A stretch of DNA of 64,000 nt from Candidatus Neochristensenella gallicola (GTDB lineage: Bacteria > Bacillota > Clostridia > Christensenellales > QALW01): NCBI GenBank assembly GCA_904419735.1, contig CAJFSR010000014.1:5955-69954 (forward strand), in the 5' to 3' direction. Position numbers and translations under genes: made by a program. Position 1 is the stretch's first letter. Each line of letters opens with the position of its first letter. Under the pieces are notes generated by a model. It saw only the letters and a program-made list of their open reading frames with translations, ran no database searches and was not told the origin of the DNA. Of the stretch, positions 4,965 to 64,000 are shown piece by piece.

Positions 4965-6587
4965 ATGAGCTATAAGGCGCTTTACAGAAAGTGGCGGCCC
5001 GAATTTTTCCGGGACGTAGTGGGTCAGGAGGTAATAGTGCGGACACTCAGGGCGCAGATAACTTCCGGCCATATAGCGCACGCTTATCTTTTTACCGGTC
5101 CGCGGGGTACGGGCAAGACCAGCATGGCCAAAATATTTGCGCGTGCCATTAACTGCCTTGAGCCTGAAGAAGGGGACGCCTGCGGCAAATGCGAGGTCTG
5201 CCTTGCGCTTAAGGGCGAGGCTATGGATATAATAGAGATGGACGCCGCAAGCAATAACGGCGTGGATGAAATACGGGCGCTCAGGGAGAATATAGTTTTC
5301 CCGCCGGCGGTGGGAAGATATAAAGTGTATATCATAGACGAAGTTCATATGCTCTCTCAGGGCGCGTTCAACGCTCTTTTAAAGACTCTGGAAGAGCCGC
5401 CCGAGCACGCGGTGTTTATACTTGCCACTACCGAGGTGCATAAACTCCCTGCCACTATTCTTTCCCGGTGCCAGCGCTTTAACTTTAAAAGCATCAGCGT
5501 ATCGGATATAAGCGGGTACCTTAAAAAAGTGCTTAAGGCCAGCGGCGCTGAATTTGAGCCGCAGGCAGTGGATTTAATAGCCCGCTCGGCCGAGGGGGGC
5601 ATGAGGGACGCGCTGTCCATAGCGGATATGTGTTTGTCCTACTGCGGCAGCAATGTTGGATATGAGGACGTAGTAAGCATTTTGGGTACGGCGGACAGGG
5701 AATTCATGTTTAAGTGTGCCGACGCGCTTATAAATTCGGATGTTAAGGGGGCGTTGGACGCCTGCGCGCAATTAACGGACAGCGGCGGGGATATAGGGGT
5801 ATTCATGAGGGATATCATGAGCCACCTTTCGGATGTGCTTACGGCCAAGCTGGCGGGAAAAGAGGCTTTAACAGCCCTGCCTGACGATATTGTTTCCCGG
5901 CTCCTTGAGCAGGGTGAACGTGCTGATGCGGACAGGCTTATGCGCGCGATTGAACTGCTGGCGCAGGCGGAGAGCGAGCTTAAGCAGCATTCCCGGCCCA
6001 AGGTTATATTAAGCGCCGTTATGGCCAGAATCTGTACTCCCCGTCTGGAAGAGGACGCGCTTGCGTTAAGGGACCGAATTTCCGTGCTGGAACAGGAATT
6101 AAGCAGCATTAAAGCTAATGGCATAGAGATGTCTTCTCGGCCGGCGCAGCCTGCAAAGACCGAGGATAAAAAAGAGGCTTCATCCAATTCATCCAAAGCG
6201 CCTGCGGCAGAAAAAAAGATTTCGGGCGCTGTTAAGGAAACCAAGCAGGATGCTCAGCAGGGTGAACTTTGGGAGGCGCTTTTAGCAAGAATGCGCAAAA
6301 ATGCCATGCCCGTGTATATGACGCTGAAAAGCGCCGAGGGCGGGCGCAGGCAGGATAATGCATATATAGTTATGTTTTCTCCTGAGCATGAGAGCAAGAT
6401 GAAATTTATTAATGGCAAGACAGAGGCAATATCAAAGGAACTGGAAGCTCTCACGGGGGAAAAACTGGCTGTGCGTACTGAGCAAACCGTCCCCGCACAA
6501 AAGCAAGAGGAGCAGGATGAGCTTATCGCAAATATAATTGATATATTTGGAGAAGAAAATATACATTTTAAAGATTCGGAGGAATGA
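4965..6587 (+). CDS. dnaX: DNA polymerase III subunit gamma/tau
   Basis: Walker A GPRGTGKTS, zinc module CGKCEVC, DEVHML and SRCQRF clamp-loader motifs. Confidence 0.93.
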   Translation: MSYKALYRKWRPEFFRDVVGQEVIVRTLRAQITSGHIAHAYLFTGPRGTGKTSMAKIFARAINCLEPEEGDACGKCEVCLALKGEAMDIIEMDAASNNGVDEIRALRENIVFPPAVGRYKVYIIDEVHMLSQGAFNALLKTLEEPPEHAVFILATTEVHKLPATILSRCQRFNFKSISVSDISGYLKKVLKASGAEFEPQAVDLIARSAEGGMRDALSIADMCLSYCGSNVGYEDVVSILGTADREFMFKCADALINSDVKGALDACAQLTDSGGDIGVFMRDIMSHLSDVLTAKLAGKEALTALPDDIVSRLLEQGERADADRLMRAIELLAQAESELKQHSRPKVILSAVMARICTPRLEEDALALRDRISVLEQELSSIKANGIEMSSRPAQPAKTEDKKEASSNSSKAPAAEKKISGAVKETKQDAQQGELWEALLARMRKNAMPVYMTLKSAEGGRRQDNAYIVMFSPEHESKMKFINGKTEAISKELEALTGEKLAVRTEQTVPAQKQEEQDELIANIIDIFGEENIHFKDSEE

Positions 6588-6590
6588 ATT

Positions 6591-6926
6591 ATGGCAAAAG
6601 GCGGTTTTGGAGGCTTTGGCGGAGGCAATATGCAGCAGCTTATGCGGCAGGCACAGAAGATGCAGCAGGATATGGAGAAAGCGCAGCAGGAATTAGGCGA
6701 AATGCAGATTGAAGCCAGCGCGGGCGGCGGCATGGTCAGCTGCACTGTAACGGGACTTAAGGAGATAGTTTCTATAAAGATTAATCCCGAAATAGTAGAC
6801 CCGGAAGATATAGAGATGCTGGAGGATACCGTTACGGCGGCCGTTAAGGAGGCTATGGCTAAGGCTGAAGAGGCCCACAGCGAGCGCATGGGACGTATAA
6901 CGGGCGGCATGGGAGGTATGTTTTAA
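6591..6926 (+). CDS. ybaB: YbaB/EbfC family nucleoid-associated protein
   Basis: 111 aa in the conserved dnaX-ybaB-recR order, with the typical N-terminal MQQLMRQAQKMQ. Confidence 0.9.
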   Translation: MAKGGFGGFGGGNMQQLMRQAQKMQQDMEKAQQELGEMQIEASAGGGMVSCTVTGLKEIVSIKINPEIVDPEDIEMLEDTVTAAVKEAMAKAEEAHSERMGRITGGMGGMF

Positions 6927-7572: not shown

Positions 7573-7710
7573 GTTCTTTCAGGGGTAGCAAAAAGCAGGG
7601 GGGCGGCTCTTGCGGCCCGTGCGGGCCGCCGGGCCGGGCCTGGGCCCGGTCCGGGCAGGCATTTTGCCTGCCAAGAGCCGCCCCCTGCTTTTTGCTACCC
7701 CTGAAAGAAC
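7573..7710 (+). repeat. GC-rich cloverleaf palindrome, copy C1
   Basis: A 37-bp outer stem (GTTCTTTCAGGGGTAGCAAAAAGCAGGGGGGCGGCTCTT / AAGAGCCGCCCCCTGCTTTTTGCTACCCCTGAAAGAAC) closes three GC hairpins: GCGGCCC-GTGC-GGGCCGC, CGGGCCGGGCC-TG-GGCCCGGTCCG and GGCAGGC-ATTTT-GCCTGCC. Lies 45 nt 3' of recR. Confidence 0.85.
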
Positions 7711-7746
7711 AAGAGGATTTGCGGTAATTTATTTTGCTTTCAGTTA

Positions 7747-8017
7747 CCCCCCGGTTTACAAGGAACTGCACGGTCAGGATGAGTAAAATCTGCCTTTTTC
7801 TGTGCTGCTTTCATTCCATGCACGCTACCTGCCGTTCGGCTATGCTTTACCCGGCATAAATTTTATACATTCTGACTCTACAGCCCCGAACGGAGAGAAT
7901 TTCTTTATTTTTAAAGGCAAACGATAGAAGCGTACTGGATGTATACCCCTTGAGGATAACTCAGAAAAAGAAGGAATTATCCCGTTATGAGGCTTGCAGT
8001 TCCTTGTAAACTGAGGG
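7747..8017 (+). mobile_element. MITE family A, copy A1 (271 bp)
   Basis: Ends are TA|CCCCCCGGTTTACAAGGAA and TTCCTTGTAAACTGAGGG|TA. Collinear with the reference copy 34172-34438 over its whole length. No ORF. Confidence 0.85.
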
Positions 8018-8179
8018 TATTAACAGCCTTAATAAAGGATATATTGCAATTTAGACAATTTAATCTTATTTTAATCATATATGGCGCTATAAATATCTCC
8101 AAATTTTTATTGAATTTTCTTATGTTGTATGCTATACTCTATTATCAGAATTATATTTATATTGGAGGTGGTTCCATAC

Positions 8180-10057: not shown

Positions 10058-10283
10058 CCCTCAGTTTACAAGGAAGACGGTCAGAAGGCATAAAATATGC
10101 GTTCTGCTGCGTTGCTTTGATTCCATGTACGCCCGGTACATGTCGTTTCTGCGCGCTTTACCTGGCACAAATTTTATGCCTTTTGACTCTGGAGACCTCA
10201 AACGGAGAGAATTTCTTCATTTTCAAGGCAGACGAAGAAGGCGTACTGGGAGTACGCTGATTGAGGATAACGCAGAAAATGAT
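10058..10283 (+). mobile_element. MITE family A, copy A2, right end truncated
   Basis: The left end TA|CCCTCAGTTTACAAGGAA is intact. Homology to the reference copy stops after GAGGATAACGCAGAAAATGA (about 10283) and the right TIR is absent. Confidence 0.8.
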
Positions 10284-13112: not shown

Positions 13113-13212
13113 TTAAGCAAGAGCAGGATATTGCAGAGAAATTTCCGCTTTATGCCGATGGGCTCTGAGGTTTTCGGGGTTGGTAGGCCGGTTGCGGCCA
13201 TTTTGCAATTAA

Positions 13213-13341
13213 GGCGCATAAGAAAATGCCCAGGGGGCGGCGTTCGCGGCCGCAGGCCGCGCGGCCGGGCCGAAGGCCCGGCCGGAGGCAGGTGCTTCGC
13301 GCCTGCCAAACGCCGCCCCCCTGGGCATTTTCTTATGTGCC
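13213..13341 (+). repeat. GC-rich cloverleaf palindrome, copy C2
   Basis: The outer stem GGCGCATAAGAAAATGCCCAGGGGGCGGCGTT / AACGCCGCCCCCCTGGGCATTTTCTTATGTGCC closes three hairpins: CGCGGCC-GCA-GGCCGCG, GCCGGGCC-GAA-GGCCCGGC and GGCAGGTGC-TTC-GCGCCTGCC. Lies 100 nt 3' of copA. Confidence 0.85.
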
Positions 13342-13539
13342 TGAACAACGAAGGTAATGGTCAGCTCGGATTAAAAGCACTGTATAATGGCGCAGATATT
13401 GCCCGCAAAAGCTTAAAAGCAGGAAAATACAGATACACTTAGACAATAATGGTGCTGCGGCCAAAAGCCGGCGGCTTGGCCCAAGGCCGGAGGGCGGCGG
13501 TGCGTCAGGCGGTTAAGCTGTTATATATGCGTGTTTTTG

Positions 13540-16203: not shown

Positions 16204-16471
16204 GCGTTAGTTTACAAAGAATAATGCGTTTAAAAACAGCTGGATTTGCGTTCCTGCTGAATTGCTTTGACTCATGTACGCCCGGCACATGCCGTTTCTG
16301 GGCCTTGCAGGAATGCAAATTTAATTATTTTTGGCTCTGCGGCCTCAGCCTGTGAAAATTTGTATGTTTTTAAGGCAGACGAGGGAAACGTGCAGAAACA
16401 CCGGCTGAGGATAATACAGAAAACGGGCAAAATTTCCCGGCTTCGGCGTGTTATCCGCTGTACATTGTTGC
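16204..16471 (+). mobile_element. MITE family A, diverged subfamily, copy A3 (268 bp)
   Basis: Ends are TA|GCGTTAGTTTACAAAGAATAATGCG and CGTGTTATCCGCTGTACATTGTTGC|TA. Shares the central blocks CATGTACGCCCGG, AAGGCAGACGAGGGA and GAGGATAA with the main family. The closest copy is 40527-40853. Confidence 0.7.
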
Positions 16472-16493
16472 TAAATTATACGGCTAAACTATC

Positions 16494-16628
16494 ATTCTGG
16501 TCCATTAGAAAAGGTCCGGGGCGGCGTTTGGCAGGCGCTTTGCGCCTGCCTCCGGCCGGGCCTTCTGCCCGGCCGCGCGGCGTGTCCGCCGCGAACGCCG
16601 CCCCGGACCTTTTCTAATGGACCAGAAT
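16494..16628 (-). repeat. GC-rich cloverleaf palindrome, copy C3 (core inverted relative to C1/C2)
   Basis: A perfect outer stem ATTCTGGTCCATTAGAAAAGGTCCGGGGCGGCGTT / AACGCCGCCCCGGACCTTTTCTAATGGACCAGAAT closes three hairpins: GGCAGGCGC-TTT-GCGCCTGCC, CGGCCGGGC-CTTCT-GCCCGGCCG and CGCGGCG-TGTC-CGCCGCG. Confidence 0.85.
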
Positions 16629-16655
16629 TTATCCTGAAATTCAAGTATAACTAAT

Positions 16656-16686
16656 AAAGGCGGCGCAATAAAATTGCGCCGCCTTT
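16656..16686 (-). terminator. intrinsic terminator of hsp20 (palindromic, could act in both directions)
   Basis: AAAGGCGGCGCAA-TAAAA-TTGCGCCGCCTTT, a 13-bp stem located 14 nt after the hsp20 stop. Confidence 0.6.
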
Positions 16687-16699
16687 ATTAATTAATCAT

Positions 16700-25935: not shown

Positions 25936-26207
25936 CCCTCAGTTTACAAGGAATTACATGCCTCGTAACGGGATAATATCTTCATTTTCTGCGTTATCCT
26001 CAATCGTAGTACGTCCAGTGCGCCTTTATCGCTTGCCTGGAAAACAAAGAAATTCTCGCCGTTTGAGGCCGCAGAGTCAGAATGCATAAAATTTATGCCG
26101 GGTAAAGCGCGCTTGAACGACATGTACCGAGTGTACATGGAATCAAGACAGCGCGCCGGTACGCAATTTTATGCATTCTAACCGTGCAGCTCTCTGTAAA
26201 CTGAGGT
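25936..26207 (-). mobile_element. MITE family A, copy A4 (inverted orientation)
   Basis: CCCTCAGTTTACAAGGAA ... CTCTCTGTAAACTGAGGT|TA. The left flank is TG instead of TA. The right end abuts the stop codon of the 26207-27568 gene. Confidence 0.85.
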
Positions 26208-31966: not shown

Positions 31967-32287
31967 TTAGAACAGCCGTCCTTTCTTTGATGCAATAAGG
32001 AGGAGGCTGAATTGGGCCGCTTGCGCAATCTGCATATATTCCCAGACGAGCATTTGAAAAATCTGTTTTATGCCGTGCAGACAGTTTTATCAAATATCAG
32101 CTTAAAGCCCGGTTTTTCCAAAGCTAAGATATAGTCCCTCCACAAATGCGAAAATATCAAATATAACAGATATATTTTATTCGATTTTTGGCAGTATGTC
32201 AATATTTGCAGAGCACTCTTGAAATAGCTTAGTTTTTATTCCTTAAAAATGAAAAGCGGCGCATATTTTTATGCGCCGCTTACCCTA

Positions 32288-32539
32288 CCCTCAGTTTACA
32301 AGGAAGACGGCCAGAAGGTATAAAATATGCGTCCTGCTGCGTTGCTTTGACTCAATGTACGCCCGGTACCTGTCGGCACAAATTTTATGCCTTCTGACTC
32401 TGAGAGCTCAAACGGAGAGAAATTTCTTCAATTTTAAGGCCAATGATGGAAGCGTACTGGGAGTAAGCCCATTGAGGATAACGTGGAAAATGAAGAAATT
32501 ATCTCGTTATGAGGCGTATAATTCCTTGCAAATTACAGT
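32288..32539 (+). mobile_element. MITE family A, copy A5 (252 bp, decayed right TIR, internal deletion)
   Basis: TA|CCCTCAGTTTACAAGGAA ... TTCCTTGCAAATTACAGT|TA, with about 17 bp missing after CGGTACCTGTCG relative to the reference copy. Confidence 0.8.
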
Positions 32540-34093: not shown

Positions 34094-36095
34094 ATGAAGC
34101 TTATATTGAGGTTTATAAAGCCCCACTGGAAATTGTGCGCGGCTACCATTTTGCTTTTGATTGTGGACGTACCCTCAGTTTACAAGGAAGACGGTCAGAA
34201 GGCATAAAATATGCGTCCTGCTGCGTTGCTTTCGCTCCAAGTACGCCCGGTACATGTCGTTTCTGCGCCTTGCATGACACAAATTTTATGCCTTCTGACT
34301 TTGAGACCTCAAACGGAGAGAATTTCTTCATTTTCAAGGCAGACGAAGAAAGCGTACCGGGGAGTACGCTGATTGAGGATAACGCGGAAAATGAAGAAAT
34401 TATCACTTTGAGGCGTGTAGTTCCTTGTAAACTGAGGGTAACGGGAACCTTAATAATTTCTACGTTTGCCGCGGAAATGCTCAATCAGGGGACATCGGGA
34501 GCGTCCTTTGAAATGCTGCTTAATACCGGGCTGAAAATGGCGGCTGCATCAATTATCTCCAGCGTATGCGCTATTTTGGGCGGATATGCCTGCGCCGCTC
34601 TTTCAGCGCGGGTAGGCAAGGATATGCGGCTGGCTATTTATAATAAATCCTTAAAACTCGCCATATATGATTTCCGCCAGTTTGGAACGGCTTCTATTAC
34701 CACCAGAACGGTTTCGGATATTACCACCATTCAGTTTGCATTGACCAGCTTTATACAGATGGTGCTGCCTGTTCCGGTAATTTTCGTTGTGGCGCTTCTT
34801 TTGGCCTTCGGCCTGGATGTGGAAATGGGCGCTATACTGTTAATTGCAGTAGCGGTTGTTTTAGTTATCGCCCTGTTTATTATGAAAAGCGCTTCGCCTT
34901 TGTTTAGAAAATTACAAAAGCTGCTGGACAGGATGACCACTATTTTACTGGAAAACATAACCGGAGTCCGCGTGGTCCGCGCCTTCAATAATGAGCGCAG
35001 GGAGGAAGCGCGCATGGGAGAGGCTTTTTCCAATTACGCCCAGACTTCCATAAAGGCCAACCGGCGGTTCGCCAATCTGGACGGACTTTCCTTCCTGTTC
35101 ATAAATCTTTTTATAGTTATTGTATATTGGCTCAGCGGCGGGAGAATCAGCTCCGGGCATCTTCAGATTGGCGATATAACCGCCGTTATCGGTTATGCAA
35201 TGATGGTGCTGTTCTTTTTGATGATGGCCCAGATGGTTGTTCTGACCATGCCCCGCGCTTTGGAATGCTGCGGCCGCGTGCAGGCGGTTCTGGAGCATAC
35301 GCCCGAAATCCAGGACATGGTTCCGGAAAAAATGCAGGCTGCGTGCGAAGAGAAGAAGGACGAGGTGCTGGCATTTAAAGATGTTTCCTTTAGGTTTGCA
35401 GACGCGGAGGAGGATACTTTAAGCCATTTGAATTTCGTATGCAGACGAGGGGAGACCACGGCGATAATAGGCGGCACAGGCAGCGGCAAGTCCACCGTAG
35501 CTTCCCTGATCCTGCGCTTTCATGATGTTACCGGGGTGCGGTATGCTTAAACGGCACGGACGTCCGGCAGCTTACCCAGCATTATCTTAGGGATCACTTA
35601 GCCTATGTCCAGCAGAAGGCGTGGCTGTTTTCCGGCAGCATTGCGGACAATCTGCGGTACGGCAATAAAGACGCCGGGGAAGAAGAATTAATGCATGCAG
35701 CAGACGTAGCGCAGGCGGGGGATTTTATACGCGCTTTGCCTGAGGGGCTGGATTCCTATGTGGCGCAGGGCGGCACTAATTTTTCGGGCGGGCAGAAGCA
35801 GAGGCTGTCCATTGCCCGCGCGCTGGTGAAAAAGCCTGAGCTCTACATATTTGACGACAGCTTTTCCGCCCTGGATTTTAAAACTGATGCGGCTCTGCGC
35901 AAGGCGCTGGCGAAGGAAACCAAGGATTCCGCAGTGTTGATTATTGCCCAGAGGGTGAGCACCATCCAGCATGCAAATCAAATAGTAGTGCTTAACCAGG
36001 GGCAAATGGCCGGCATCGGCACCCATGAGGAGCTGCTGCAAAATTGTCCGGTTTATCGGGAAATCTATGAATCGCAGACCAAGGAGGCACATTAA
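34094..36095 (+). pseudogene. ABC exporter (fused TMD-NBD, MdlB/MsbA type) disrupted by a MITE insertion and a frameshift
   Basis: The N-terminus MKLILRFIKPHWKLCAATILLLIVDV (34094-34171) is separated from the rest of the TMD by the element at 34172-34438. The Walker A region GGTGSGKST is followed by a -1 frameshift in a G-run (35533-35536). The NBD continues in another frame (LSGGQKQRLSIARAL, IFDDSFSALD). Confidence 0.85.
34172..34438 (+). mobile_element. MITE family A, reference copy A6 (267 bp) inside the ABC exporter gene
   Basis: Has a perfect 20-nt inverted terminus including the flanking TA (TACCCTCAGTTTACAAGGAA / TTCCTTGTAAACTGAGGGTA). TA lies on both sides (34170-71 and 34439-40). 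Removing the element plus one TA restores the reading frame. Confidence 0.92.
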
Positions 36096-39816: not shown

Positions 39817-40506
39817 TCAATCCAGCTCCAGGCCGGCTATCCAATCGGCTATGTCTTCTCTGGTCCCGGACACGCGGCTGCCGGACACATGAAGTCCCGT
39901 TAAGATTGCGGCTCCTGGCGCGCTGCTTGGGAGCTTGTCCAGGCTGCGGCCAAAGGCGCTGCCGCCGCTGGTGCAGAAGGGGACGAGGGTCTTGCCCTCC
40001 CAATTATAAGCTTCCAGGAACGAGTAGATAAGCATGGGCGCGTCGTTCCACCAGTTGGGGTATCCCACAAATACGACGTCGTAGCTGTCCCAGTTTTCCA
40101 CTGAATTGGCCAGCTCCGGCCGTGCGTTGTCCGCCTGCTCCTGCTGTGCAATGTCGAGGAGCTGGTTGTAATCGTCTGTGTACGGGGTGGCAGGTTCAAT
40201 TTCAAACAGGGTGCCGCCCGTTTCGGCTTGGATCATCTGCGCCATCTGCTGGGTATTGCCCGACCAGGAAAAGTAAGCGATGAGTATTCCGCACGTTCCG
40301 GCCGCGGGGAGTGTTGCTTCTGCGGACGGTTCAGAACCGGAAGGCGTTTGCGGGGACGGTGTTTCAGAGGCCTGCGCGGACGGCCCGGAGAGCTGGGAAG
40401 AAGGCCGGGAGGAGCCATTGCCGCCCGAAGAGGTGTTTTCGCCGCCGCAGGCAGTCAGGGACAAGACCAGTGCCATGGACAGCAGAAGAGGTAATAATTT
40501 TTTCAT
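39817..40506 (-). CDS. flavodoxin-like lipoprotein (paralogue of 27750-28421)
   Basis: Start at 40506 (MKKLLPLLLSMALVLSLTACGG). A Ser/Pro linker precedes a flavodoxin-type core (ILIAYFSWSGNTQQMAQMI ... PFCTSGGSAFG). Confidence 0.75.
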   Translation of the reverse strand: MKKLLPLLLSMALVLSLTACGGENTSSGGNGSSRPSSQLSGPSAQASETPSPQTPSGSEPSAEATLPAAGTCGILIAYFSWSGNTQQMAQMIQAETGGTLFEIEPATPYTDDYNQLLDIAQQEQADNARPELANSVENWDSYDVVFVGYPNWWNDAPMLIYSFLEAYNWEGKTLVPFCTSGGSAFGRSLDKLPSSAPGAAILTGLHVSGSRVSGTREDIADWIAGLELD

Positions 40507-40526
40507 TTTGACCATTCCTTTCTTTA

Positions 40527-40853
40527 TTGTCAGCGAGCAGGGTATAATGCGGTTTAAAACAGCTTAATTTTCCTTCCTGCTGTGCTGTTTTTTCTCAATA
40601 CACGCCAGGTACAGCCGTGTATGTACCTTGCAGGGACGCAAATTCAACCGTTTTTGACTCTGCGGCCCCGGCCCATGGAAAATTGCCCGCTTCCAAGGCA
40701 GACGAGGGAGGCCCAGAGGCGCGCCCGCTGATCGGGGATAACGCCGAAAAGCATACCGGCCTGGGATAGCGCATAAAAGTACAACAACCGGGGTCAGCGC
40801 AGAAAACGGGCGAAATTTCGGGCTGCGGCGCATTATTCCCTGTACGCTTAACT
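40527..40853 (+). mobile_element. MITE family A, diverged subfamily, copy A7 (about 327 bp, ends approximate)
   Basis: TA|TTGTCAGCGAGCAGGGTATAATGCGGTTTAAAACAGC ... CAGAAAACGGGCGAAATTTCGGGCTGCGGCGCATTATTCCCTGTACGC. Collinear with 16204-16471 and shares AAGGCAGACGAGGGA and GGGGATAACGCCGAAAAG with the main family. Confidence 0.6.
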
Positions 40854-54326: not shown

Positions 54327-54385
54327 AAAAACAGCTTGGGCGTTTTGAGCTTTAATACGGCTCAAAACGCCCAAGCTGTTTTTTT
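54327..54385. terminator. bidirectional intrinsic terminator
   Basis: A5-CAGCTTGGGCGTTTTGAGC-N9-GCTCAAAACGCCCAAGCTG-T7, a 19-bp perfect stem. Confidence 0.8.
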
Positions 54386-60154: not shown

Positions 60155-60312
60155 ATTTTTATTTTCAGTGAGGCCGGCTTAAGGGCCGCTCCCCGCGGCG
60201 TTGGGCAGGGCTGGAAGCCCTGCCCTGGCCGGGCAACAGCCCGGCTGCGCGGCCGAAGGCCGCGAACGCCGCGGGGAGCGGCCCTTAAGCCGGTCTCCCT
60301 GAAAATAAAAAT
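60155..60312 (-). repeat. GC-rich cloverleaf palindrome, copy C4 (core inverted, longest outer stem)
   Basis: The outer stem ATTTTTATTTTCAGTGAGGCCGGCTTAAGGGCCGCTCCCCGCGGCGTT / AACGCCGCGGGGAGCGGCCCTTAAGCCGGTCTCCCTGAAAATAAAAAT closes three hairpins: GGGCAGGGC-TGGAA-GCCCTGCCC, GCCGGGC-AACA-GCCCGGC and CGCGGCC-GAA-GGCCGCG. Confidence 0.85.

Positions 60313-60585: not shown

Positions 60586-64000
<3,415 letters not shown>

Follow-up and report, generated by a model that had tools for sequence, protein, structure and literature searches.

Four intergenic, GC-rich palindromes in a 64,000-nt stretch of DNA (49% GC) from Candidatus Neochristensenella gallicola, referred to here as the window, belong to a family that is not explained by any known family tested and that consists of undescribed interspersed palindromic repeats of bacteria. 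The four copies, designated C1 to C4, each fold in prediction into a cloverleaf, i.e., a long closing stem and a four-way junction with three GC hairpins. The family is best described as a previously undescribed form of bacterial interspersed palindromic repeat, with a three-hairpin junction core, arms derived from the local flank, flipping in place and recursive nesting, and not as a demonstrated structured RNA. The explanation that we favor, to which we give somewhat better than an even chance, is a DNA-level repeat shaped by template switching.

C1 to C4 are the four longest and strongest inverted repeats of the window (arms of 30, 29, 35 and 48 nt, 93-100% complementary; GC content 66-69%). 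A preliminary description of this DNA, made from its letters alone, had placed four copies with one common architecture and consensus here, two in each orientation, and all of this was borne out, with the C2 palindrome extending to 13209-13345 (13213-13341 in that description; Table 1). The RNA minimum free energies of the four copies are -117 to -138 kcal/mol (z = -11 to -17 versus dinucleotide shuffles), and the fold of the complementary strand is about as stable; with DNA parameters C1 and C3 fold at -77.6 and -83.6 kcal/mol (z = -14.8 and -17.8). The conserved core of about 80 nt consists of GCGGCGTT, the three GC hairpins A, B and C (starting with GCGGCC..., GGCCGGGC... and GGCAGGCG..., respectively) and then AACGCCGC; the hairpin stems are 7-10 bp long and close loops of 3-5 nt whose bases are not conserved. 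The inner stem (GGGG)GCGGCGTT / AACGCCGC(CCCC) is kept among the copies, C1 carrying a variant with TCTTG/CAAGA, and the sequence of the outer stem is unique to each copy. A search pattern for the core matched exactly C1 to C4 in the window, with 0 matches expected from 100 shuffles. The core reads A-B-C on the + strand in C1 and C2 and on the - strand in the other two copies; in the covariance model search one strand of a copy outscores the other by about 25-35 bits, so the orientation of the core is well defined.

The preliminary description had spoken of a four-copy family, had proposed a search with a covariance model and had named a lack of copies elsewhere as an argument against a functional family. 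Four is correct for the window, in which the covariance model R1 found no fifth copy over the 64 kb, but many more members, nested forms and a second subfamily exist in other genomes and gut metagenomes. When the strict core pattern was scanned against one genome per GTDB species and against metagenomes, true members were found in two genome assemblies, "uncultured Clostridiales bacterium UMGS1037" (4 contigs) and "Selenomonadales bacterium CIM:MAG 469" (3 copies), and on 19 of 20 metagenome contigs, several of which end within an element. With model R1 these loci yielded about 20 additional copies of greater divergence, among them four in a stretch of 2.4 kb near recF in L031 (L-numbers denote contigs or loci from other public genome and metagenome assemblies), and 0 matches came from viral and high-GC control loci that total about 1.2 Mb. 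Seven other matches of the genome scan, all in high-GC genomes, were rejected by the covariance model; the high-GC matches of the genome and metagenome scans taken together (L001, L003, L005, L007, L008, L010, L012 and L038) were discarded as chance, without a model match. An assembly artefact was rejected as well: the same elements are present in independent ENA, NCBI, JGI and Logan assemblies. The assembly collection has RecR of the window species in 266 indexed blocks, and the species is abundant in ENA gut metagenomes; the nearest named relatives of this RecR ("Clostridia bacterium", "Firmicutes bacterium") are 74% identical.

In an alignment of 17 distinct copies, 95.6% of the structure cells are paired and double changes occur at 19 of 42 pairs; shuffled and slid controls of the same alignment scored far lower. 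In the closing stem 15 of 20 pairs have double changes; the 12 outermost columns there vary freely and GCGGC/GCCGC is invariant. The elements are also found inside one another: in five places (Table 1) a large stem, starting with GGGGGCGGCGC, closes three arms, namely a unique perfect GC hairpin, a complete cloverleaf and a second unique perfect GC hairpin, and the basal stem GGGGGCGGCG is common to the larger three-hairpin cloverleafs. A second subfamily has the same basal stem (GGGGGCGGCGCGG) and three quite different hairpins; its copies in L002 and L018 are recognizably homologous to each other (AATTTTGC..., CCAATATGC...GAAAGC ttgc TTTC). What stays constant across the nested forms and the second subfamily is the basal stem, together with a layout of three hairpins set in a stem. 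Among the copies, reciprocal nearest relatives are physical neighbors (C2/C3, 0.89; L006a/b, 0.91), a pattern that would fit local copying or local gene conversion.

L163 and L164 have the same gene order as the window (S9 peptidase, hsp20, uvrA-like, copA, CNNM) and encode a UvrA-like protein 92% identical to that of the window. At the C2 site L163 has a decayed copy of 31 bits with imperfect stems (GGGGCGGCGTT GGCGGTGtataCGCCG .. GGCCGGTCCtttGGCCTGGCC .. GGCGGCttttGCCTGCC AAACGCTGCCCC), which is the only hairpin in the 190-nt spacer between the convergent genes; its core begins 1 nt past the stop codon of the uvrA-like gene, with no arm on that side. The copA-side flank in L163 (TGGGGCATTTTTATG...) is homologous to the copA-side arm of the window (CTGGGCATTTTCTTATG...), and the uvrA-side arm of the window would therefore be an inverted copy of the ancestral flank. 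In the uvrA-to-copA direction the hairpins are ordered A-B-C in L163 and C-B-A in the window, which indicates that the core is inverted at the same C2 site between the two. The segment of about 200 nt that separates C2 from the stop codon of the uvrA-like gene (13346-13539) has no counterpart in L163, and a GC-rich piece in it, GCGGCCAAAAGCCGGCGGCTTGGCCCAAGGCCGGAGGGCGGCGG, might be a remnant of another element. At the C3 site of L163 the hsp20 terminator is conserved and the cloverleaf is missing. At the C4 site of L167 (Crp 88% identical) homology continues for about 150 nt past the stop codon and then gives way to divergent sequence without a cloverleaf; the C3- and C4-site flanks in relatives are too diverged to define exact empty sites. 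No empty C1 site was found, as the loci of RecR relatives (88-89% identical; L018, L020, L021) differ in gene order right after recR, and no outgroup was found for the C2 site among the distant UvrA-like loci L165, L166, L170 and L171, which are not syntenic. On these comparisons one of the four copies, C2, appears to be old, flipped and decaying in a relative, and two, C3 and C4, appear lineage-specific.

Closely related strains differ within the elements too. One stem pair of C1 is T-A in the window, is changed only in the 3' arm in L017 and L024, and is G-C in L035 (strains 98-99% identical); that a species has a compensated change alongside its intermediate suggests copying of one arm onto the other. 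In hairpin C of C4 the window has the loop GGA and L030 the loop TTC, a difference of the kind that inversion of a GAA loop in an ancestor would leave, GAA and TTC being exact complements.

In the explanation favored here, the cloverleafs would be interspersed non-coding DNA palindromes in the broad class of REP and MITE elements. The core of about 80 nt would be the inherited or copied unit, a short inverted repeat (GGGG)GCGGCGTT...AACGCCGC(CCCC) around three GC hairpins, and the outer stem would be made locally, by copying one flank in inverted form to the other side of the core, and would not be carried by the element. The most likely route would be a DNA polymerase that switches template intramolecularly at the folded core, and the same process may keep the arms identical and flip hairpin loops and the whole core. 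Template switching would produce arms that are unique but perfect and of variable length, seamless pairing into the core, no target duplications, random orientation, and nesting of elements in each other's hairpins. Four reports on quasipalindrome template-switch mutagenesis and the evolution of inverted repeats describe switching between inverted-repeat arms that homogenizes the arms, inverts the spacer and lengthens the repeat (PMC8604942, PMC13100816, PMC8794818, PMC7202029), and all three outcomes (arm homogenization, inversion and repeat growth) are seen in the cloverleafs, in their loops, whole cores and outer arms. That work concerns a mutational process and no repeat family, and it leaves the spread of a core and the three hairpins unexplained.

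The main rival, which we consider unlikely, concerns the origin of the outer arms: a mobile core would have been inserted into the loops of pre-existing terminator hairpins, the unique outer stems being old host hairpins, by a hairpin-targeting transposase or by recombination, possibly break repair or gene conversion on the GCGGCG stems of ordinary terminators. A run of A4 in the 5' arm with T4 in the 3' arm is found in 12 of 29 elements, the reverse in 3 and neither in 14 (12 versus 3, binomial p = 0.035), a polarity in keeping with such an origin; many of the 14 elements without runs are inner copies of nested structures, in which the outer stem carries the runs. Insertion is also favored by the ordinary terminators of the window, whose stems contain GGCGGCGC or GCGGCGC and which may form palindromes that are long and perfect (16652-16690, 32254-32281, 54327-54383), by the nested forms, in which the inner cloverleaf occupies the place of the long middle hairpin of another element, and by the failure to see a target-site duplication. 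The GGCGGCG stem motif is common to the hsp20 terminator and the basal stem of the cloverleaf. However, pairing is unbroken from the outer stem into the core with no remaining loop bases, the orthologous L163 copy consists of a core and one flank with the second arm missing, the outer stems measure 24-40 bp compared with 10-24 bp in most ordinary hairpins of the window, and no candidate enzyme was found beside the elements. The hairpin at 54327-54383 is a perfect one of 24 bp with a 9-nt loop (AAAAACAGCTTGGGCGTTTTGAGC ... GCTCAAAACGCCCAAGCTGTTTTT) and resembles a bidirectional terminator; it indicates that the genome commonly carries long perfect palindromes outside the cloverleafs as well.

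The TTTT of the 12 elements sits directly after a G/C-rich stretch, and the layout of A-run and T-run is, by its sequence, that of a bidirectional intrinsic terminator. Many copies probably act as bidirectional intrinsic terminators, a view to which the L163 copy, the sole hairpin of its spacer, also contributes; a simple terminator scan, limited to loops of 8 nt, was blind to the cloverleafs. Predicted termination in both directions would allow the elements to be tolerated or retained at gene ends. This role is compatible with the DNA-level explanation and is part of it.

A termination role could also belong to a functional structured RNA or 3'-end module (an elaborate terminator, an mRNA stabilizer or a protein-binding RNA) whose covariation results from selection on the RNA, a reading that we judge rather unlikely. 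It would account for the very high predicted stability and extensive covariation, for the T-run after the GC stem in many copies, for the start of the L163 copy directly past a stop codon and for the location of copies mostly at gene ends (8 convergent, 12 tandem and 4 divergent spacers). The orientation of the core, on the other hand, is random relative to transcription: about 5 copies are co-directional with the gene whose end faces the element and about 7 are opposite (about 31 copies examined), counts that rest on crude gene calls and small numbers. The hairpin A loops are strand-symmetric (TTC 8, GAA 6, GCA 3, TGC 2; n = 29), with GAA or GCA used 9 times versus 10 times for their complements TTC and TGC; C(GNA)G triloops are unusually stable in DNA hairpins, and repeated loop inversion would give such even use of a loop and its complement. 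No unpaired nucleotide is conserved in the 17-copy alignment and an Rfam match is lacking; the orthologous core at C2 is inverted and decaying, and strains at 97-99% identity carry uncompensated changes, an 8-nt deletion in C4 (L168) and an altered loop. The arms run 10-17 bp past the T-run, more than a terminator needs, and the recursion and the unrelated hairpin sets are hard to justify for an RNA module. The preliminary description had noted variable loops on kept stems, which may be taken to imply a structured RNA; with gene-independent orientation, equal use of GNA loops and their complements, and an inverted, decaying ortholog, this interpretation is not supported, and the perfection of the stems would be better explained by arm homogenization in DNA. 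A strand-specific RNA is thus disfavored and the evidence points to DNA; errors of DNA copying, and not selection on an RNA, seem to have built the stems and to maintain their perfection.

Several points weigh against the template-switching explanation. Neither template switching nor transposition is observed directly here, and template switching does not explain the constant three hairpins or the route of the core to new sites. No carrier or mobilizer of the core was found: there is no transposase among 32 neighboring genes, no phage or plasmid carrier and no target-site duplication. The comparison of C2 rests on two taxa with no outgroup, so that L163 could have lost an arm plus about 200 nt by deletion, and for C3 and C4 the relatives could have lost a copy instead of the window having gained one. 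Look-ups with RecR, Hsp20 and Crp returned occupied sites only, and no strain of the window species was found to lack even one of the four copies. The copies were found via a pattern derived from the window copies, and diversity and copy number are therefore underestimated; the counts of orientation given above are likewise crude. Finally, the basal stem GGGGCGGCG is common to subfamilies with unrelated hairpins, which recognition by a protein would fit better.

Such recognition is the basis of another rival, doubtful in our view, in which the cloverleaf is a DNA site for a structure-specific protein: an extruded four-way junction or cruciform, or the basal stem GGGGCGGCG, would be bound or cut by a recombinase, a nucleoid or topology factor, or a junction resolver, with a role in rearrangement or chromosome organization. 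Besides the basal stem that is conserved across subfamilies, its supporting evidence includes two independent structural differences that break exactly at the core boundary (L030 at C4 and L163 at C2) and the C2/C3 pair, which flanks, in inverted arrangement, a horizontally shared uvrA-like gene. No associated gene was found and the neighbors are ordinary housekeeping genes; copies decay in a relative, vary between strains and are irregularly spaced, and the junction in L030 may have come from a simple rearrangement or from joining of contigs in assembly. In that strain (97% identical) synteny between L030 3361-3380 and window 60272-60312 ends exactly at the edge of the C4 core; beyond it the second arm is absent and another gene, which has its own terminator, comes next. 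The break reflects one of two things, a rearrangement at the element or a join made in assembly. The breakpoints at the core edge and the basal stem common to subfamilies hint that this boundary is recombinogenic or recognized by an enzyme. A bolder form of the template-switching explanation, which we put forward only tentatively, would be a self-propagating DNA element: synthesis primed by a hairpin, or template switching, would be set off by the three-hairpin junction, and the element would make its arms out of host flanks, flip in place, nest in other copies, spread without a dedicated transposase or via an unrecognized enzyme that reads the basal stem GGGGCGGCG or the four-way junction, and supply bidirectional terminators. 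The idea that the variable arms are acquired foreign sequences stored as hairpins in the manner of spacers is very improbable: arms and long middle hairpins are indeed unique sequences of 20-40 nt, but 21 arm sequences had no match in 50,697 phage records (E <= 1), C1 had no plasmid match and one C2 arm is local flank.

The statement in the preliminary description that no named repeat or RNA family is recognizable agrees with the searches made here, which include the Rfam and REP/BIME comparisons proposed there. With Rfam 15 at gathering thresholds there were 0 matches in the 64-kb window (no tRNA, rRNA or riboswitch either), and in E-value mode seven members on L031 and L006 gave only microRNA-like hairpin matches of 24-44 bits against thresholds of 60-107. 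ARAGORN found 0 tRNA or tmRNA genes in the window, and a full-text literature search yielded no description of a cloverleaf family and analogues only. Matches in viral contigs to the strict core pattern numbered 0; more than 120 viral matches to a loose basal-stem pattern were attributed to chance in phages of 60-70% GC (by folding, and by 0 covariance model matches in 120 loci), and a plasmid search with C1 was without a match. A full-length autonomous element bounded by GGGGCGGC was rejected, the 8 other occurrences of this sequence in the window being near the chance level of 5.7. An "inverton" (invertible promoter) was rejected as well: the inverted repeats differ at every locus and an invertase was not seen nearby. 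An integron attC site was judged on gene context, no integrase being present among the neighbors (recR, copA, hsp20, recF, TsaD, MurB and others).

The nearest analogues are REP/BIME elements with RAYT, and REPINs, which are likewise short GC-rich extragenic palindromes among housekeeping genes, mostly at gene ends, in both orientations and sometimes clustered; terminator or mRNA-stabilizer roles have been proposed for REP/BIME, and BIMEs are sites for gyrase and IHF. A REP, however, is a single imperfect hairpin of 20-40 nt with conserved arms and a GTAG/CGTC tag, whereas the cloverleaf is a four-way junction of 130-160 nt with unique arms; the tag was not found in 24 of 26 copies (core +/- 12 nt), and the RAYT gene associated with REPs, like any other transposase, is lacking among the 32 genes neighboring the elements, which are housekeeping genes. 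Bacterial MITEs (Correia/NEMIS, ERIC, RUP, BOX) are also non-coding and intergenic, 100-200 nt long, with terminal inverted repeats and possible terminator activity. They differ in having conserved outer termini and target-site duplications: the conserved inverted repeat of the cloverleaf (GCGGCGTT/AACGCCGC) is internal, its outer ends are unique, and no consistent direct repeat was found around palindromes or cores. Bidirectional intrinsic (Rho-independent) terminators share the A-run, G/C-rich stem and T-run between gene ends, but the "loop" of the cloverleaf is a three-hairpin junction of about 60 nt conserved across loci and genomes, and its stems pass the T-run.

Allomyces double-hairpin elements and Volvox palindromic repeats are organellar analogues. 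Yeast mitochondrial GC clusters (PMC4478555) and sponge repetitive hairpin-forming elements (PMC2800124) are others, and such GC-rich hairpin elements of organelles also invade the spacers of lower-GC genomes and form families and subfamilies, several with nested insertion and unidentified mobilizing enzymes. They are found in mitochondria or plastids, usually as single or double hairpins without flank-derived arms, whereas the cloverleafs have a fixed three-hairpin junction and reside in a bacterial chromosome. The inverted terminal repeats of parvoviruses and adeno-associated virus (AAV) are multi-branched GC-rich palindromes as well, with flip and flop orientations that result from hairpin-primed copying, and those of AAV are unstable in SbcCD-proficient bacteria (PMC11754738). 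They differ in that they need Rep, form a T with two internal hairpins and make up the termini of a linear genome of single-stranded DNA; the cloverleafs are internal to the chromosome, with three hairpins and no Rep-like gene nearby.

Table 1. Coordinates of the cloverleaf copies and related features (window positions unless a locus is named)
Feature	Positions	Strand	Remarks
C1 whole palindrome	7573-7710	+	138 nt, 68% GC; core A-B-C on + strand; model score 86.9 bits (+), 62.5 (-)
C1 outer arm	7573-7602	.	unique sequence; perfect pairing with 7681-7710; AAAAA faces TTTTT
C1 core	7603-7681	+	GCGGC to GCCGC; hairpin A 7612-7629, B 7630-7653, C 7654-7672
C2 whole palindrome	13209-13345	+	core 13237-13316; hairpin A 13245-13261, B 13262-13284, C 13287-13307
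C2 copA-side arm	13209-13237	.	ancestral flank; homologous to flank of decayed orthologous copy in L163
C2 uvrA-side arm	13317-13345	.	inverted copy of copA-side flank; no counterpart in L163
C3 whole palindrome	16494-16628	-	perfect 35-bp closing stem; core 16521-16601, A-B-C on - strand
C3 hairpins	C 16530-16550, B 16553-16575, A 16576-16593	-	
C4 whole palindrome	60155-60312	-	longest closing stem: 48-nt arms, 96% complementary; core 60195-60272
C4 hairpins	C 60203-60225, B 60227-60246, A 60248-60264	-	core reads A-B-C on - strand
hsp20 terminator hairpin	16652-16690	-	TAATAAAGGCGGCGCAAT aaa ATTGCGCCGCCTTTATTA; ordinary terminator, outside cloverleaf family
Nested elements	L031 2128-2375, L031 4207-4432, L006 about 650-860, L039 about 6430-6700, L011		
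Second-subfamily examples	L039 4845-4956; L002 2309-2455; L018 14944-15084		L018 is from a sister species
MITE-like repeats of about 270 nt	7740-8025, 10058-10282, 25936-26201, 32288-32532, 34172-34440, partial 16244-16339; L011 3278-3546; L036 4218-4498		

All four window copies are intergenic with no coding sequence to explain them, as described earlier. Their distances from the upstream stop codon are 45 nt for C1 (recR), 101 for C2 (copA), 72 for C3 (hsp20) and 226 for C4 (crp-like), in agreement with the 45-230 nt 3' of a gene given in the preliminary description; as a rule for the family this placement was understated, some copies being located in divergent or promoter-side spacers. C2 lies between the convergent copA (+) and uvrA-like (-) genes, and C3 lies behind the terminator of hsp20 (16652-16690), about 480 nt upstream of the uvrA-like gene. 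No convergent gene follows C4: its neighbors are the crp-like gene (+) and, running the same way, a pyruvate:ferredoxin oxidoreductase gene on the + strand (start near 60601), and the C4 core is antisense to the two genes.

A promoter-like match (TGGACC, 18 nt, TATAAT) at 16475-16504 on the - strand is directed at the uvrA-like gene and has its -35 hexamer within the outer arm of C3. Public annotations call a 58-aa open reading frame (ORF) over C1 (3682-3858 in L014-L016; about 7610-7786 in the window), almost certainly a spurious call caused by the GC-rich repeat. The uvrA-like gene between C2 and C3 (13540-16017, - strand) encodes an 825-aa class II UvrA paralogue, 85-88% identical to proteins from Candidatus Aphodoplasma, Candidatus Monoglobus and an uncultured Dialister; elsewhere it is found in unrelated contexts, once adjoining a TnpV gene (L171), and it is probably horizontally mobile. 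The cloverleaf pair that flanks it, inverted relative to each other, is the most similar one. In L026, a contig of another strain, the sequence corresponding to window position ~17958 is followed, about 1.7 kb on, by sequence that matches window 40055-40579, from which it follows that strains differ by an indel or a rearrangement of about 22 kb.

A second repeat family, MITE-like and about 270 nt long, is bounded by terminal inverted repeats (..CCCTCAGTTTACAAGGAACTGCA..) and contains in its interior an inverted pair (GTCAGAAGGCATAAAATATG / CAAATTTTATGCCTTCTGAC); there are at least 5 copies in the window with 73-79% identity, and it is also found in UMGS1037 and in another metagenome organism (up to 97.6% over 124 nt). 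Its copies often adjoin cloverleafs (C1, C3, L011a). L006 7640-7880 (Selenomonadales MAG 469) is a back-to-back array of unique perfect GC-rich hairpins of 23-26 bp; two of the hairpin stems end in ..AAAGC, a short loop and GCTTT.., and type 1 and type 2 cloverleafs adjoin the array.

Few components of bacterial genomes are as poorly understood as interspersed palindromes (REPs, REPINs and MITEs, for example). If the explanation favored here is true, the cloverleafs would be a natural system in which template switching can be watched as it makes long perfect hairpins in a bacterial chromosome and maintains them. Compensatory changes, even perfect ones, may arise in a stem through DNA copying, and covariation need not mean a functional RNA. 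In practice, cloverleafs of about 150 nt break metagenome assemblies and attract spurious ORF calls. If they terminate transcription both ways, they would be compact, portable terminator modules, and they may mark rearrangement breakpoints in abundant uncultured gut Clostridia.

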